Of a stretch of DNA of 64,000 nt, positions 1 to 5,019 are shown piece by piece. Every line of letters starts with the position of its first letter. Positions within the stretch are counted from its first letter, which is position 1. Under the pieces are notes generated by a model. That model was not told where the DNA came from and did not search any database. It was given only the letters and a program-made list of their open reading frames with translations. Origin of the DNA: an uncultured delta proteobacterium (GTDB lineage Bacteria > Desulfobacterota > Desulfomonilia > UBA1062); NCBI GenBank assembly GCA_963785235.1, contig CAWAUM010000010.1:160001-224000 (forward strand). The letters are read 5' to 3'. The position numbers and the translations under genes are program-made.

Positions 1-626
1 AGGATGCGCTCTTCAATGACAGGGTGACGACGCCTGGCATTTGCAGGCAGCATGACCCACTCGGCCGGGTGCCGTTCCAGGCTGGGGATTTTTTGTGCCA
101 AGGGCTCGGACAGCTCCACAATACCCATGGAGTGTGCGATCCGTGTGGTGGTGCGCACCATGACGGGAGTGCCGAATTCCTCGCTGATGGCAAAGGCCTC
201 CCTTGTGAAATCCTTTGCCTCCTGCGAACTTGAAGGCTCAAGCATGGCGATCTTGGCAAACCTGGCATAATGCCGGTTGTCCTGCTCATTCTGGGAGGAG
301 AACAACTCGGGGTCATCCGCGCTGATGAGCACTATACCACCTCGTATAAGGGTATATGGCAATGTCATGAGCGGGTCTGCCGCCACATTCACCCCTACAT
401 GCTTCATGACTGCCAATGCCCGTGCGCCTGTGTACGATGCACCCACAGCCACTTCCAGGGCAACCTTCTCGTTGGGCGCCCATTCGGAATGGATGTCTTT
501 GTATTCTTTTGCCATTGTTTCAAGGATCTCGGTGCTGGGTGTGCCGGGATATGCTGCGGCAAAAGAAATACCTGCCTCATACGCACCCCGTGCCACCGCC
601 TCATTGCCGCTGAGGATCTTCTTCAT
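1..626 (-). CDS. iorA: Indolepyruvate (arylpyruvate):ferredoxin oxidoreductase alpha subunit, 5' part (runs off the window)
   Basis: Not in the ORF track. Manual translation from ATG 626 gives MKKILSGNEAVARGAYEAG...AYPGTPSTEI...EWAPNEKVALEVA...MKHVGVNVAADPL...SADDP...SSQNEQDNR, the typical IorA N-terminus. RBS AGGAGAGGGA upstream. Confidence 0.95.
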   Translation of the reverse strand, partial: MKKILSGNEAVARGAYEAGISFAAAYPGTPSTEILETMAKEYKDIHSEWAPNEKVALEVAVGASYTGARALAVMKHVGVNVAADPLMTLPYTLIRGGIVLISADDPELFSSQNEQDNRHYARFAKIAMLEPSSSQEAKDFTREAFAISEEFGTPVMVRTTTRIAHSMGIVELSEPLAQKIPSLERHPAEWVMLPANARRRHPVIEERI

Positions 627-646: not shown

Positions 647-684
647 CAAAATAAAAAAAGGCCATGGGTTTTGCCCATGGCCTT
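647..684 (-). terminator. Intrinsic terminator of the iorA attenuator
   Basis: Minus strand reads AAGGCCATGGG-CAAAA-CCCATGGCCTT and continues into a T-run (TTTTTTTATTTT), about 20 nt upstream of the iorA start. Confidence 0.93.
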
Positions 685-710
685 GTCTGTTAGCTTACCG
701 GCAACCAGGC

Positions 711-779
711 CTATGGGCAAACGCCCTTCCTAAAGTAAAAGCCGTAATAATAAGCCCGGGTTGCTGTCTTTTCGAACAT
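711..779 (-). CDS. Tyr/Phe-rich attenuator leader peptide MFEKTATRAYYYGFYFRKGVCP (22 aa)
   Basis: ATG at 779, TAG at 713-711. Codon cluster TAT TAT TAC GGC TTT TAC TTT. The stop codon lies inside the antiterminator arm. Confidence 0.88.
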   Translation of the reverse strand: MFEKTATRAYYYGFYFRKGVCP

Positions 780-1138
780 CGCTTTGTATTTCCACGTACA
801 GGGGCTCTCTGTCAAGAGGTTTTTCAAGACTGATCAAAAGGCTTGAGTAAAGAAATCACCATGGCCATGGAATTGTTTTTTAAAGTTAGAGCCGCCAAGT
901 GTCATGTCCTGGTAAACAAGGCATAGCCATTGAGGGGAAATTTATCTCGTTGGCCCCTTTTTATCTTATCCCGGCAATGTGATTTTACTGCATTTTATGA
1001 AGATGCAACTCACTATGGGCTTGCATTTCAAGCAGAATTATGCTAAATGATAGTATTCCGATTAAAACAGCATGGAAGATGACACGATCGGATGCTCTAT
1101 ACAGTATCATTTTAATGTGATGACGGGAGGGATACCCA

Positions 1139-2368
1139 ATGAAAAAAGCATCATGCCTGATTTTATTAATGGCCCTTTTTGTCAGTGCCTGCAGCACGAG
1201 CAATAACTCTGTTTCCCTTATACAGAATAAAGACTATCAGCATGCCCTCATGGAGATACTTCCCATTGCCGAGCAGGGAAATGCCCAAGCCCAGTATAAC
1301 CTTGGACTCATGTATATCAATGCATGGGGGGTGTCTCAGGATTTTCTCAAGTCAGCCAGATGGTTCCAGAAGGCAGCGGAAAACGGTAACGTGGATGCCC
1401 AGTTCAATCTGGGAATCATGTATTATAAAGGCATGGGAGTTACACGCAACTATGCCGAAGCTGCCAAATGGTTCACCGAGGCCTCGGAACAGGGTTATGT
1501 AAAGGCGCAGAGCAATCTCGGATTCATGTATTACAGGGGTCTGGGCGTCAAGCAGGACTATGGAAAGGCTGAAAAGTGGTACCGCAAGGCTGCAAATCAA
1601 GGTGATGTGGAGGCCCAAAGGCGCCTGGGAAATATCTATTATCATGGAAAGGATATAGCCCAGGATCTGAAAGAGGCTGCTCGTTGGTACCGCAAGGCCG
1701 CGGATCAAGGCAATGTTGAATCACAGAGCATTCTCGGAGACATCTACAGTAACGGAGCGGGTGTAGCAAAAAACTATGCAGAGGCCATCAAGTGGTACTC
1801 CCTGGCTGCCATACAGGGGAATACCCATTCCCAGAGCAGCCTTGGGTTTATTTATCTCAACGGCGAGGGCGTGCATCAAAATTTTTCCGATGCCGCCTAC
1901 TACTTCCGCATGGCTGCAGAGCAGGGTAATAACCTTTCACAGGGTTATGTCGGTTATTTCTATGACCACGGCCTGGGCGTGCCTCAGGACTATACTGAGG
2001 CAGCCAAGTGGTATCTCATGGCAGCCGAACAGGGTGATGCCGTCATTCAGTTCAACCTCGGCCTCCTGTACTCGAGCGGCAAGGGCGTCCAGCAAAACTA
2101 CGAAGAGGCTGCCAAGTGGTTTCAGAAGTCTGCAGAGCAAGGTTACGACAAGGCTTTGTACAACTTAGGGCTTCTGTACAGCAACGGCAACGGGGTACCA
2201 AAGGATTATATGCAGGCCTATTTATGTTTCAAACTCGCAGCTGAACAAGGTATTGAGACTGCAAACACCTATCTCGAAACCATGGCACAACAGATGACGC
2301 CCGCCCAGATTGCGCAGGCGCAGGAAATGGCAAAGGCATGGAAGCAGCCGGCAAGCTCTGCGAATTGA
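1139..2368 (+). CDS. Sel1-like repeat (SLR/TPR) lipoprotein
   Basis: Lipobox-like FVSAC followed by about 9 repeats of AQxxLGxxYxxGxGVxQDYxEAxKWYxKAAEQG. Confidence 0.92.
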   Translation: MKKASCLILLMALFVSACSTSNNSVSLIQNKDYQHALMEILPIAEQGNAQAQYNLGLMYINAWGVSQDFLKSARWFQKAAENGNVDAQFNLGIMYYKGMGVTRNYAEAAKWFTEASEQGYVKAQSNLGFMYYRGLGVKQDYGKAEKWYRKAANQGDVEAQRRLGNIYYHGKDIAQDLKEAARWYRKAADQGNVESQSILGDIYSNGAGVAKNYAEAIKWYSLAAIQGNTHSQSSLGFIYLNGEGVHQNFSDAAYYFRMAAEQGNNLSQGYVGYFYDHGLGVPQDYTEAAKWYLMAAEQGDAVIQFNLGLLYSSGKGVQQNYEEAAKWFQKSAEQGYDKALYNLGLLYSNGNGVPKDYMQAYLCFKLAAEQGIETANTYLETMAQQMTPAQIAQAQEMAKAWKQPASSAN

Positions 2369-2542: not shown

Positions 2543-3151
2543 ATGAACAGGATACTGATTCTCTTTGCACATCCACGTTATGAGAAGTCCCGGATCAACC
2601 GGTCCCTGCTGGCACAACTCGCAGGGTCAGAGGGTATCACCACCCATGACTTGTATGAGCTGTATCCGGATTTCAATATTGATGTGGAGCGCGAGAAAAG
2701 CCTGCTGCTGGAACATGACATCATCATCTGGCAGCACCCTTTCTACATGTACAGCGCACCGGCCATCATCAAGCAGTGGATCGACATGGTACTTGAATTC
2801 GGATGGGCGCATGGGGCAGGGGTTGACAATCTCAAGGGCAAGATCGCCTTCAATACCATCACCGCAGGCGGCACAAGGGAATCATATGACAGGGTCGGAT
2901 TCAACCGCTATACCATGCAAGAGTTCCTCTATCCCTTTGAACAGACCGCCAGGCTCTGCAAGATGCATTACCTGCCCCCCTTTGCGGTACAGGGGACATA
3001 CCGCCTAAGCAATGCAGAGCTCTCGGGGTACGCAGCATTGTATAAAGCCATGCTTACGTTCCTCTCCCATTGTGATTTTTCCGAAGACATGCATTTACAC
3101 CCCTACCTCAATGACTGGTTCCTGGAAAAACAGGAGAAAAAGGGACCATGA
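2543..3151 (+). CDS. KefF/KefG-type NAD(P)H oxidoreductase (flavodoxin-like ancillary subunit)
   Basis: ILFAHP, HDLYELYPDFNIDVEREK and WQHPFYMYSAPA motifs; overlaps the Kef transporter start. Confidence 0.9.
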   Translation: MNRILILFAHPRYEKSRINRSLLAQLAGSEGITTHDLYELYPDFNIDVEREKSLLLEHDIIIWQHPFYMYSAPAIIKQWIDMVLEFGWAHGAGVDNLKGKIAFNTITAGGTRESYDRVGFNRYTMQEFLYPFEQTARLCKMHYLPPFAVQGTYRLSNAELSGYAALYKAMLTFLSHCDFSEDMHLHPYLNDWFLEKQEKKGP

Positions 3152-5019
3152 CCGCCGGCTTTCTTCCCCAGGCACTGGTCTACCTGACGGCTGCCATTAT
3201 CTGCGTACCGGTTACCAAGCGTCTCGGCATGGGGTCGGTCCTGGGGTATCTCCTGGCAGGCATGCTCATAGGGCCGTATTTTCTCGGGTTCGTAGGCGCC
3301 GAAGGCCAGGACATCATGCACTTTGCCGAGTTCGGGGTAGTCATGATGCTCTTTCTCATCGGCCTTGAGCTTGAACCCTCCCACTTCTGGCCCATGCGAA
3401 GCCGCATCCTGGGCATGGGCACCGTGCAGGTCTCTGCCACGACACTGCCGGCAGCTGCAGGACTTATGCTTCTGGGCTTTTCATGGCAGGCAGCCCTTGC
3501 CTCAGGCCTTGCCATAGCAATGTCTTCAACAGCCATCGTTCTCCAGTCCATGAAGGAAAAGGGCCTGGGAGACACCAATGCAGGAAAGAGCTCTTTTTCC
3601 GTTCTCCTGTTTCAGGACATCACCGTGATACCTGTACTGGCTTTTCTTCCGCTGCTTGCAACCACTACCATACACAGCGATACAGGTCACTCCCTGCAGA
3701 TGCTCGAAGGGTTGCCGGGCTGGCTCCAGGCAGCGGCGGTCCTGGGGGCAGTCTCGTTCGTGGTCCTTGCCGGACGCTTTATCATCGTTCCTTTCCTGAG
3801 ACTCATGGCTCTCACCAACCTCAGGGAGCTTCTTACTGCTGGTGCCCTGCTCATCATTATCGCCACGGCCGGCCTCATGCAGCTGGTGGGCCTGAGCCCG
3901 GCCCTTGGCACCTTCCTGGCAGGGGTAGTCCTTGCCAACAGCGAGTTCAGACACGAACTTGAAAGCGACATCGAGCCTTTCAAGGGCCTTCTCCTGGGAC
4001 TTTTTTTCATAGCAGTCGGCGCGTCCATCAATTTCAGGCTCATTGTGGATTCGCCGTTTCAGATCCTGTCCCTGGTCTTCCTCATCATTGCCTTGAAGAC
4101 CATCATACTCATGGCAACCGGCAGGTTCTTCAAGCTCTCCTTTGACCAGAACCTCATCTTTGCCCTCGGGTTGTCCCAGGTGGGAGAATTCGCCTTTGTG
4201 CTCTTTGCCTTCATACACCAACTGGGCATCCTGTCTCCTCACTGGACAGACATTATGATGGCTGTAACCGCACTCAGCATGACCGTTACCCCTTTTCTGC
4301 TCTTCATCAATGAGCACTTCATCCTCCGTCATTTCGGTACCCTGGAGGTCCAGAAGATACAAGCAGCAGATGCCATCGATGTCCAGCATCCGGTCATCAT
4401 TGCCGGGTTCGGCGATTTCGGCAGCACCATCGGCCGTTTCTTAAGGGCGAACGGCATCGAGGCAACGATCCTGGATAACGATTCCGACCGGGTAGACCTG
4501 CTGAGAAAAATGGGGTTCAAGGTTTTTTACGGTGATGCCACCAGGTTCGATATCCTCAAATCAGCAGGCGCTGAAGAAGCAAAGATACTCATTGCAGCAA
4601 TCTCGGATCCGTCCACTCACCATGAGCTCATTGACCGGCTGCAGAAGCACTTTCCGGATTTAAAGCTCATGGTCAGGGTAAAGGACAGGGCCGAGGCCTA
4701 TGATTTGATCGACCTTGGACTGGGTGATGTGTATCGTGAATCACTCGACACATCGGTAAGACTCGGAGTGGATGTACTCATAAAGCTTGGACACAGAAGG
4801 TACAGCGCAACCCGGGCAGGCCAGAACTTCTTAAAGAACGACGAGGCAGCTCTGACAAAACTGGCCCCGCACCGCCATGATGAAAAGTCATACATATTCA
4901 ACGCCCGTGAGCAGATCCGCCTGCAGGAGCAGCTCCTGGCCGATGACCGCAACGCGAACCCGGCACTCAACGATCATGCCTGGGAGAACGACCGGTACAT
5001 GGACGAGCAGGAAAAATAA
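3148..5019 (+). CDS. KefB/KefC-type CPA2 K+/H+ antiporter with KTN domain
   Basis: AEFGVVMMLFLIGLEL, VLLFQD, HELESDIEPFKGLLLGLFF, GFGDFG...YGDATR. Confidence 0.93.
   Translation: MTAGFLPQALVYLTAAIICVPVTKRLGMGSVLGYLLAGMLIGPYFLGFVGAEGQDIMHFAEFGVVMMLFLIGLELEPSHFWPMRSRILGMGTVQVSATTLPAAAGLMLLGFSWQAALASGLAIAMSSTAIVLQSMKEKGLGDTNAGKSSFSVLLFQDITVIPVLAFLPLLATTTIHSDTGHSLQMLEGLPGWLQAAAVLGAVSFVVLAGRFIIVPFLRLMALTNLRELLTAGALLIIIATAGLMQLVGLSPALGTFLAGVVLANSEFRHELESDIEPFKGLLLGLFFIAVGASINFRLIVDSPFQILSLVFLIIALKTIILMATGRFFKLSFDQNLIFALGLSQVGEFAFVLFAFIHQLGILSPHWTDIMMAVTALSMTVTPFLLFINEHFILRHFGTLEVQKIQAADAIDVQHPVIIAGFGDFGSTIGRFLRANGIEATILDNDSDRVDLLRKMGFKVFYGDATRFDILKSAGAEEAKILIAAISDPSTHHELIDRLQKHFPDLKLMVRVKDRAEAYDLIDLGLGDVYRESLDTSVRLGVDVLIKLGHRRYSATRAGQNFLKNDEAALTKLAPHRHDEKSYIFNAREQIRLQEQLLADDRNANPALNDHAWENDRYMDEQEK

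Follow-up and report, generated by a model that had tools for sequence, protein, structure and literature searches.

The 64,000-nucleotide window analyzed here (C10:160001-224000 of the genome of an uncultured member of the Desulfomonilia, below the source genome) carries near its start, on the minus strand, the gene iorA for the alpha subunit of indolepyruvate:ferredoxin oxidoreductase (IOR), a 2-oxoacid:ferredoxin oxidoreductase, and, upstream of it, a short leader element on the same strand; positions without a contig name follow the numbering of the window. This element is very likely a ribosome-mediated transcription attenuator for tyrosine and phenylalanine, predicted to control the operon iorA-iorB-paaK-ACT-ABC transporter-paaK2. 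In the proposed mechanism, transcription would begin at or a few bases from the start codon of a leader open reading frame (ORF). When Tyr or Phe is scarce, the ribosome would stall in the codon run YYYGFYF and cover RNA segment 1, leaving segment 2 free to pair with segment 3; the resulting antiterminator would block the terminator and let RNA polymerase enter iorA. When both amino acids are plentiful, the ribosome would reach the TAG codon within segment 2 and cover that segment, so that the terminator formed by segments 3 and 4 would fold and transcription would end near position 650. With no translation at all, helix 1:2 would form and the 3:4 hairpin would again terminate. The response to Tyr/Phe supply would in this scheme be a read-out of tRNA-Tyr and tRNA-Phe charging. 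A first-pass annotation, made from the letters of the window alone, had already read the element as a three-helix leader-peptide attenuator, and this reading is supported by the conserved frame and its aromatic codons, the covariation of helix 1:2, the mutual exclusivity of helices 2:3 and 3:4, the spacing of the parts, and the presence of sibling attenuators.

The coordinates of the first-pass annotation proved correct base for base (Table 1). The leader that it had described, with 22 codons, six Tyr/Phe codons in a stretch of seven and no Trp, lies where it was placed on the minus strand; its peptide MFEKTATRAYYYGFYFRKGVCP contains 4 Tyr, 3 Phe and 0 Trp in total. Helix 1:2 (764-750 with 714-701) has the 14 base pairs, the single bulge (a C) and the two G-U pairs assigned to it, and the proposed antiterminator 2:3 (721-707 with 683-670) was borne out as well. 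A terminator scan detected the 3:4 hairpin and its U-tract, with a stem at 684-658 of 11 pairs, 7 of them G-C, closed by a loop of 5; the complete terminator element (684-647) stands 21 nt ahead of the iorA start (626). Segment 2 includes the Pro codon and the TAG stop (713-711), and its core GCCCATAGGCC is nearly invariant in the leader alignment. The final aromatic codon ends 13 nt ahead of the G of GCCC in segment 2. The minimum free energy fold of positions 627-790 holds both helix 1:2 and the terminator at -54 kcal/mol (z = -2.8), and 2 of 200 shuffled sequences were as stable. When the ORF body was shuffled 1000 times with its composition preserved, no shuffle had seven or more in-frame aromatic codons, and in a scan of the 3.9-Mb genome for short ORFs combined with perfect-stem terminators this leader was the sole case with six aromatics per seven-residue window. 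The arrangement of the leader exceeds chance expectation. A simple promoter scan missed the TTGACA promoter owing to the weak -10 hexamer of the source genome, GAAATA, in place of which most relatives have GATATA.

Orthologs of IorA, searched with its first 208 residues, were identified in 58 genomes of a class sample of 61 that includes the source genome, with identities of 75-95% in family f1, to which the source genome belongs, and of about 60% in family f2. The first-pass annotation had proposed a check for conserved Tyr/Phe codon runs upstream of iorA in relatives, and we looked for the leader at the 30 best iorA loci (the source genome and 29 relatives) as a short upstream ORF with at least four aromatics in seven residues, ending in Cys-Pro, Arg-Pro or Ser-Pro, whose TAG is embedded in GCCC-N-TAGG and followed by a GGCCATGGG...CCATGGCC terminator, with TTGACA located 35-39 nt before the ATG. 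Such a leader is present at 26 of these 30 orthologous loci; at one further locus (L024) a contig end truncates the leader, and segment 2 and the terminator are kept. A search with a strict DNA motif derived from the element, covering 185,579 species with one genome each, yielded 35 stretches, all of them in metagenome-assembled genomes (MAGs), and in 31 cases an iorA-like start follows directly; many of these stretches come from the same genomes as the 29 relatives (identical rows) and are not independent of them. The motif-bearing MAGs are labeled Desulfomonilia, Syntrophaceae UBA1062, Deltaproteobacteria, Thermodesulfobacteriota, Bacteriovoracaceae, Aquificota, or simply bacterium. With a covariance model derived from 19 leaders, 36 of the 52 f1 genomes gave a match scoring 52 bits or more; in 70 f2 genomes the best match of the model scored 39.4 bits, and none was at an iorA ortholog.

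Judged by its sequence, the short ORF is probably translated. In 26 of 26 leaders, all from family f1, the ATG next to the promoter opens a frame that reaches the conserved TAG without an internal stop, giving lengths of 20-24 codons, and the other two frames are interrupted by stops in 13 and 23 of the 26. Tyr and Phe make up 30% of the encoded peptides (88 Tyr and 86 Phe, with 3 Trp, among 583 residues), and aromatic codons number 177 in frame 0 as against 70 and 48 in the other frames. Conservation of the peptide is confined to the aromatic run and the one or two residues at the C-terminus. Within the run, Tyr and Phe codons interchange between genera, from 4 Tyr:3 Phe in the source genus to 1 Tyr:4 Phe in others; the suggestion of the first-pass annotation that two amino acids are sensed fits this mix, whereas the dominance of Tyr that it had noted does not extend beyond the source genus.

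These counts bear on the alternative that the element is an RNA switch working without translation (a riboswitch, or a leader that binds tRNA or protein), in which the ORF would be an accident of a U/A-rich linker. The stretch between segments 1 and 2 is indeed U/A-rich, and the other two frames are not devoid of aromatic codons; however, frame 0 has 2.5 to 3.7 times as many, the ATG-TAG frame stays open in every leader despite variation in length, Tyr and Phe codons are exchanged with aromaticity kept, and the codons of the sibling leaders described below match their operons. The RNA families point the same way: in the Rfam check that the first-pass annotation proposed, no Rfam family reached its gathering score, the best being the trpB motif (21.8 versus 59 bits, aligned mainly to the terminator); Phe_leader (RF01859) scored 13.3 bits against a gathering score of 55, and the T-box model had no match at E up to 10 in positions 620-830 or 1-1400. 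We therefore consider a translation-independent switch very unlikely.

Helices 1:2 and 2:3 were specified by hand, because RNAalifold returned only the terminator and a 3-bp stem, and their pairs were then counted on alignments. In a MAFFT alignment of 19 leaders, 87.3% of the cells of helix 1:2 are paired and 6 of its 14 pairs changed on both sides; the corresponding values are 97.6% and 2 of 11 pairs for helix 3:4, and 95.2% and 2 of 12 pairs, with 6 invariant, for the antiterminator 2:3. None of 500 shuffles matched either the percentage paired or the covariation score of helices 1:2 and 3:4 taken together, and controls with slid helices were 17-58% paired. All 63 matches of the covariance model were aligned as well, to remove the selection among leaders; they contain 40 distinct rows, which include the seven leaders left out of the 19-leader alignment (L014, L016, L018, L022, L028, L029, and L032), three leaders of another lineage, and two weak reverse-strand matches. 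In these rows 80.7% of the cells of helix 1:2 are paired and 9 of its 14 pairs show changes on both sides; the observed covariation score was attained by none of 500 shuffles, in an alignment that is fitted to the model and leans towards it. Helix 1:2 covaries. The covariation that the first-pass annotation had proposed to check was thus found for 1:2, and not by the automatic route of RNAalifold on a plain alignment.

The geometry of the leaders is suited to a choice between two folds. The antiterminator and the terminator share one arm and are mutually exclusive, and the antiterminator is equally stable or more so: folded alone, the two have median energies over the 26 leaders of -23.8 and -18.8 kcal/mol, respectively. 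From the end of the final aromatic codon it is 10-22 nt (median 13) to the first G of segment 2, a segment that contains the stop codon. The footprint of a ribosome extends about 12 bases beyond its A site. With this spacing, a ribosome in the aromatic run would therefore open helix 1:2 without covering segment 2, whereas one at the stop codon would bury segment 2.

Several observations weigh against the attenuator reading. The leader is missing at three f1 loci among the 30 (L020, L023, and L030), where the upstream regions are unrelated, and at the 20 f2 orthologs examined, in whose upstream 300 nt the segment 2/terminator motif was found in 0 of 20 cases; the leader is therefore not essential to iorA. 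Single-sequence folding with RNAfold did not place helix 1:2 in the same register in seven of the 26 leaders, which were for this reason excluded from the 19-leader alignment, and RNAalifold on the plain MAFFT alignment recovered the terminator and the short stem rather than 1:2. Moreover, helices 2:3 and 3:4 are largely invariant in sequence and hence offer little covariation.

As a separate observation on family f2, its iorA upstream regions (L074-L093) share a different leader, with a promoter made up of TCTTGACA, a 17-nt spacer and TAGGAT, a 5' region of about 170 nt, and a short CCGG...CCGG hairpin right before a GAAAGGTGA ribosome-binding site and a GTG start, and with no aromatic ORF. 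At 3 of the 20 f2 loci a short ORF with four aromatics in seven residues occurs 210-450 nt upstream of iorA.

Further features concern the start and the end of the leader ORF. The offset from TTGACA to the ATG is 35-39 nt in 26 of 26 leaders, and the ATG starts 6-10 nt after the -10 hexamer, a gap too short for any Shine-Dalgarno sequence. Because of this short distance, transcription probably starts at or next to the leader ATG, and the leader mRNA would be leaderless. At the other end, all 26 ORFs terminate with Pro followed by the stop codon. A C-terminal Pro slows termination, and this ending may prolong the masking of segment 2 by the ribosome; the codon for this Pro, however, belongs to helix 2:3 as well, and the constraint at this position may come equally from the RNA or from the peptide.

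The same Pro-stop ending, together with the peptide length of 20-24 residues and the usual annotation of IOR as a catabolic enzyme, recalls a nascent-peptide sensor such as TnaC, in which the ribosome would stall at the Pro-stop and induce a catabolic IOR operon when aromatics are abundant. TnaC is of similar length and likewise ends in Pro-stop, and it works through a conserved peptide along the exit tunnel and Rho-dependent termination. In the iorA leaders, however, a ribosome held at the stop codon would cover segment 2 and favor the terminator, that is, repression rather than induction; the peptide varies except in the aromatic run and at its final one or two positions, termination is of the intrinsic instead of the Rho type, an equal design with Leu codons precedes leuA, and the final Pro codon may be kept for the sake of the RNA helix. 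A TnaC-like sensor is accordingly hard to reconcile with the element, and we regard it as a highly improbable alternative to attenuation by tRNA charging.

The least credible of the alternatives is that the ORF is an independent micro-protein gene with its own terminator and that iorA is transcribed from a separate promoter. Two loci (L012 and L026) do have 110-160 nt between the terminator and iorA, and the spacer of L012 contains a TTGACA-like site, but in the source genome and, judged by eye, in most relatives the gap from the U-tract to iorA is only about 20-40 nt and holds just a Shine-Dalgarno sequence. A micro-protein would also leave without explanation the conserved antiterminator that competes with the terminator, the lack of peptide conservation outside the aromatic run, and the occurrence of this leader type ahead of iorA, of the binding-protein gene, and of paaK, which are separate genes of a single pathway.

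The leader covariance model finds two further elements in the source genome, one ahead of the gene for 2-isopropylmalate synthase (leuA) and one ahead of the gene for DAHP synthase, and the genome scan added a third sibling on contig C1 (Table 1). The identity of the two biosynthetic enzymes is well founded (767 bits versus an NCBIfam cut-off of 532 for 2-isopropylmalate synthase, and 493.7 versus 335 for DAHP synthase, which has chorismate synthase about 2.3 kb away). The leuA leader has a terminator hairpin nearly identical to that of iorA and a Shine-Dalgarno-like sequence before its ATG. The leader MATRILTNNSFGFFFFD on C1 precedes genes for a HAAT-type binding protein, an ABC ATPase, and a FadD-like acyl-coenzyme A (acyl-CoA) ligase. 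All three siblings have alternative antiterminator folds (-23.8, -30.0, and -28.9 kcal/mol), and they share with the iorA leader the short ORF, the antiterminator, and a terminator right before the first gene; they differ from it in their codon runs (Leu; Phe/Tyr/Trp; four Phe), and the leuA and DAHP synthase leaders place segment 2 differently. Reuse of the same segment 2 by the leuA leader, suggested by its ending GCCCCTAG, was considered and rejected, as folding puts the antiterminator arm further upstream. The Phe/Tyr/Trp leader was found at 18 of 20 fetched secondary matches of the model in family f1, and in 17 of these 18 Trp lies within the run; in 15 of the 18 the downstream frame starts like the DAHP synthase of the source genome, the only protein to which the DAHP synthase family model was applied, and in the other three (L109-L111) the longest frame is different. 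Leader-peptide attenuation is thus predicted to be in general use in this lineage, with control codons that match the pathway in two textbook cases (leuA and DAHP synthase).

Table 1. Predicted parts of the iorA leader element and sibling leaders of the source genome (window numbering, or contig and position where a contig is named).
Feature	Position	Strand	Basis or remark
Promoter -35 hexamer TTGACA	810..815	-	Read from sequence; invariant in 26/26 aligned leaders
Putative -10 hexamer GAAATA	787..792	-	17 nt past the -35 hexamer, 7 nt ahead of the leader ATG
Leader ORF, 22 codons + TAG, peptide MFEKTATRAYYYGFYFRKGVCP	711..779	-	ATG at 779, TAG at 713-711
Control codons YYYGFYF (TAT TAT TAC GGC TTT TAC TTT), codons 10-16	732..752	-	Sequence
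Segment 1, 5' arm of helix 1:2, overlapping the first Tyr codon	750..764	-	Folding and pair counts
Segment 2, pairing with segment 1 (via 714-701) or segment 3 (via 721-707)	701..721	-	Folding and pair counts
Segment 3, 3' arm of the antiterminator and 5' arm of the terminator	670..684	-	Terminator scan, pair counts
Segment 4, 3' arm of the terminator	658..668	-	Terminator scan, pair counts
U-tract after the terminator stem, seven T + one A + four T	647..657	-	Sequence, terminator scan
iorA Shine-Dalgarno GGAGAGGG	641-634	-	Sequence
iorA, ATG at 626, frame running off the window start	1..626	-	ORF reading
Leu-run leader, 29-codon ORF MKLFKNTYQPLLLLCLKTINRRPSFLGCP, run LLLLCL, ending GCCCCTAG	C3:411048-411159	-	Ahead of 2-isopropylmalate synthase (leuA)
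Phe/Tyr/Trp leader MITVSAHSFYGYYFWFRKWPPVG + terminator	C5:444413-444543	+	Ahead of DAHP synthase
Phe leader MATRILTNNSFGFFFFD, four-Phe run, 12-bp terminator	C1 ~15330-15190	-	Genome scan

Leaders of the iorA type also occur ahead of other genes of the set. In two genomes a standalone binding-protein/ABC operon has its own Tyr/Phe leader (MRNYACIQAYRYVYYYRKKRCP in L058, ~4280-4154, minus strand, and MLRYAFTQAYYCGFFYGMGGCP in L094), and both leaders keep the segment 2/3/4 design of the iorA leader. In three MAGs of another lineage, labeled Aquificota, Thermodesulfobacteriota, and bacterium, a leader of the type MGEGREGFWGGFFFSSSGP stands ahead of paaK-ACT (L043:440-554, L059:581-694, and L066:7187-7315); it has three consecutive Phe codons, one Trp, and the GCCCATAGGCC/GGCCATGGGCC design, and the PaaK proteins of these genomes are 71% identical to that of the source genome. 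The paaK-ACT leader of this lineage may reflect common descent or a transfer together with paaK. The aromatic leader thus travels with each part of the gene set, namely iorAB, paaK-ACT, and the transporter.

The operon beyond the window was read from 12 kb of adjoining contig sequence. Past iorA, the gene order is iorB, paaK, a gene for an ACT-pair protein, genes for a HAAT-family binding protein and an ABC transporter, and a second paaK-like gene. The IOR alpha subunit has the POR_N and TPP_enzyme_C domains; the copy of the source genome scores 642 bits, slightly below the TIGR03336 cut-off of 650.9, on account of a frame break near its C-terminus, and the intact ortholog in L004, which shares 95% identity across the first 208 residues, reaches 737.9 bits. 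The aryl-acetate CoA ligase of the PaaK type scores 579 bits with TIGR02155 (cut-off 646), the called ORF being without about 47 N-terminal positions of the profile. IOR beta and the Peripla_BP_6 binding protein are each in two fragments in the source genome. Among solved structures, amino-acid binders come nearest to the binding protein (4gnr, E = 1.5e-44; 3td9, E = 1.2e-37), and its matches to the solved aromatic-acid binders 4evs and 4ey3 are weaker (E = 1e-13 to 1e-18). Frames are broken in several genes of the source operon (C10:148001-161200, minus strand), namely at the C-terminus of iorA, in iorB, in the binding protein and the permease genes, and in the ATPase gene, which is fused to a PaaK-like fragment; the iorA frames of relatives are intact (576-620 residues). 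These split frames, in an assembly of 13 contigs, are likely assembly indels and not decay. Divergent from the leader promoter, positions 1139-2368 (+) encode, as read from the translation, a 409-residue Sel1/TPR-like repeat protein with a lipoprotein-like N-terminus, followed by an overlapping pair (2543-3151 and 3148-5019, both +) whose translations resemble a KefF/KefG-type flavoprotein and a KefB/KefC-type K+ efflux protein, respectively.

The first-pass annotation had remarked that the predicted target is not a textbook biosynthetic operon. This is correct, and the regulatory logic suggests instead that the IOR-PaaK operon is biosynthetic here. In the proposed route, aryl acetates would be taken up and activated to aryl-acetyl-CoA by the AMP-forming PaaK, carboxylated reductively by IOR to aryl pyruvates, and converted to Phe and Tyr, for which aryl pyruvates are the precursors in transamination. 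We infer this direction from the regulation and from the linked PaaK: expression would rise under Tyr/Phe shortage, when degrading scarce Phe and Tyr would be senseless, and an AMP-forming ligase pushes aryl acetates to CoA esters, which IOR can then carboxylate. The most likely role of the operon would thus be anabolic. Trp codons are nearly absent from the iorA leaders, unlike those of DAHP synthase, and the route may accordingly serve Phe and Tyr but not Trp.

Two points speak against parts of this scheme. With chorismate synthase and DAHP synthase both encoded in the source genome, prototrophy does not depend on the IOR route; as the shikimate enzymes that were checked are present, the route would be one of salvage. 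A replacement of a missing shikimate pathway by IOR was for the same reason rejected. As to the uptake of aryl acids, the ABC transporter may instead import amino acids: the assignment as an aromatic-acid importer was dropped as unsupported by the sequence, the nearest solved relatives of its binding protein being amino-acid binders. Import of Phe and Tyr themselves may equally account for induction under starvation. Taken as a whole, an anabolic, starvation-induced iorAB-paaK-ACT-transporter regulon, co-ordinated with the DAHP synthase attenuator, in which the codons mirror the substrate range, the leaders are leaderless and the Pro-stop delays release, forms a plausible picture that we put forward tentatively, with slightly more doubt than confidence that all of its parts hold together.

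The principle of leader-peptide attenuation, in which the position of the ribosome reads tRNA charging, is classical (PMC1183508; PMC3082878), and the element belongs to the trpL/pheL/hisL class; its target, its lineage, and its codon mix appear to be new, and its start is probably leaderless. It resembles the pheL-pheA and pheM-pheST leaders of Gammaproteobacteria (Phe_leader) as well as trpL, hisL, and leuL in having a leader ORF with control codons, the 1:2, 2:3, and 3:4 helices, and an intrinsic terminator. In contrast to pheL and pheM, the iorA leader has a mix of Tyr and Phe codons instead of Phe alone, a stop codon inside the antiterminator arm, and a probably leaderless start, and it is predicted to control an IOR/PaaK/ACT/ABC operon of uncultured Desulfomonilia instead of pheA or pheST. 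In the lineages studied by 2005, as summarized in one comparative account, phenylalanine genes were under attenuators and tyrosine genes under T-boxes (PMC1262725). A leaderless leader peptide is described for ilvB of Corynebacterium diphtheriae, where the transcription start coincides with the start codon (PMC5784534); the iorA leader probably shares this feature, its start being deduced from promoter spacing, and differs in phylum, amino acid, and target. Our literature search found no iorA or paaK attenuator and no Tyr/Phe leader of this kind in searchable full texts; subscription papers and supplements lay outside the search, and an earlier mention is possible.

For the proposed direction of the pathway there is a precedent in the archaeon Methanococcus maripaludis, which is on record as making aromatic amino acids from aryl acids by way of IOR, beside de novo synthesis (Porat et al., cited in PMC4162585). 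The two systems are alike in the alpha and beta subunits of IOR, in the proposed direction, and in the proposed place of the pathway as a second route beside de novo synthesis; they differ in that M. maripaludis is an archaeon and that the direction in Desulfomonilia is suggested by the regulation and the AMP-forming PaaK. We know of no attenuator for the IOR route of M. maripaludis.

Leader-peptide attenuators show in the DNA itself which amino acid shortage turns an operon on. Clusters of IOR and PaaK genes are widespread among anaerobes, and annotation usually assigns them to the degradation of aromatic amino acids; the control logic predicted here points instead towards the making or salvage of Phe and Tyr from aryl acetates. 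The leader thus offers a testable functional assignment for an uncultured lineage of peat, sediments, and digesters, and a rule that may be applied to other IOR/PaaK loci. It also constitutes a well-supported RNA family, with at least 40 distinct sequences, covariation, and three siblings, in a phylum with few documented attenuators, and provides a compact candidate Tyr/Phe-responsive switch for reporter work.

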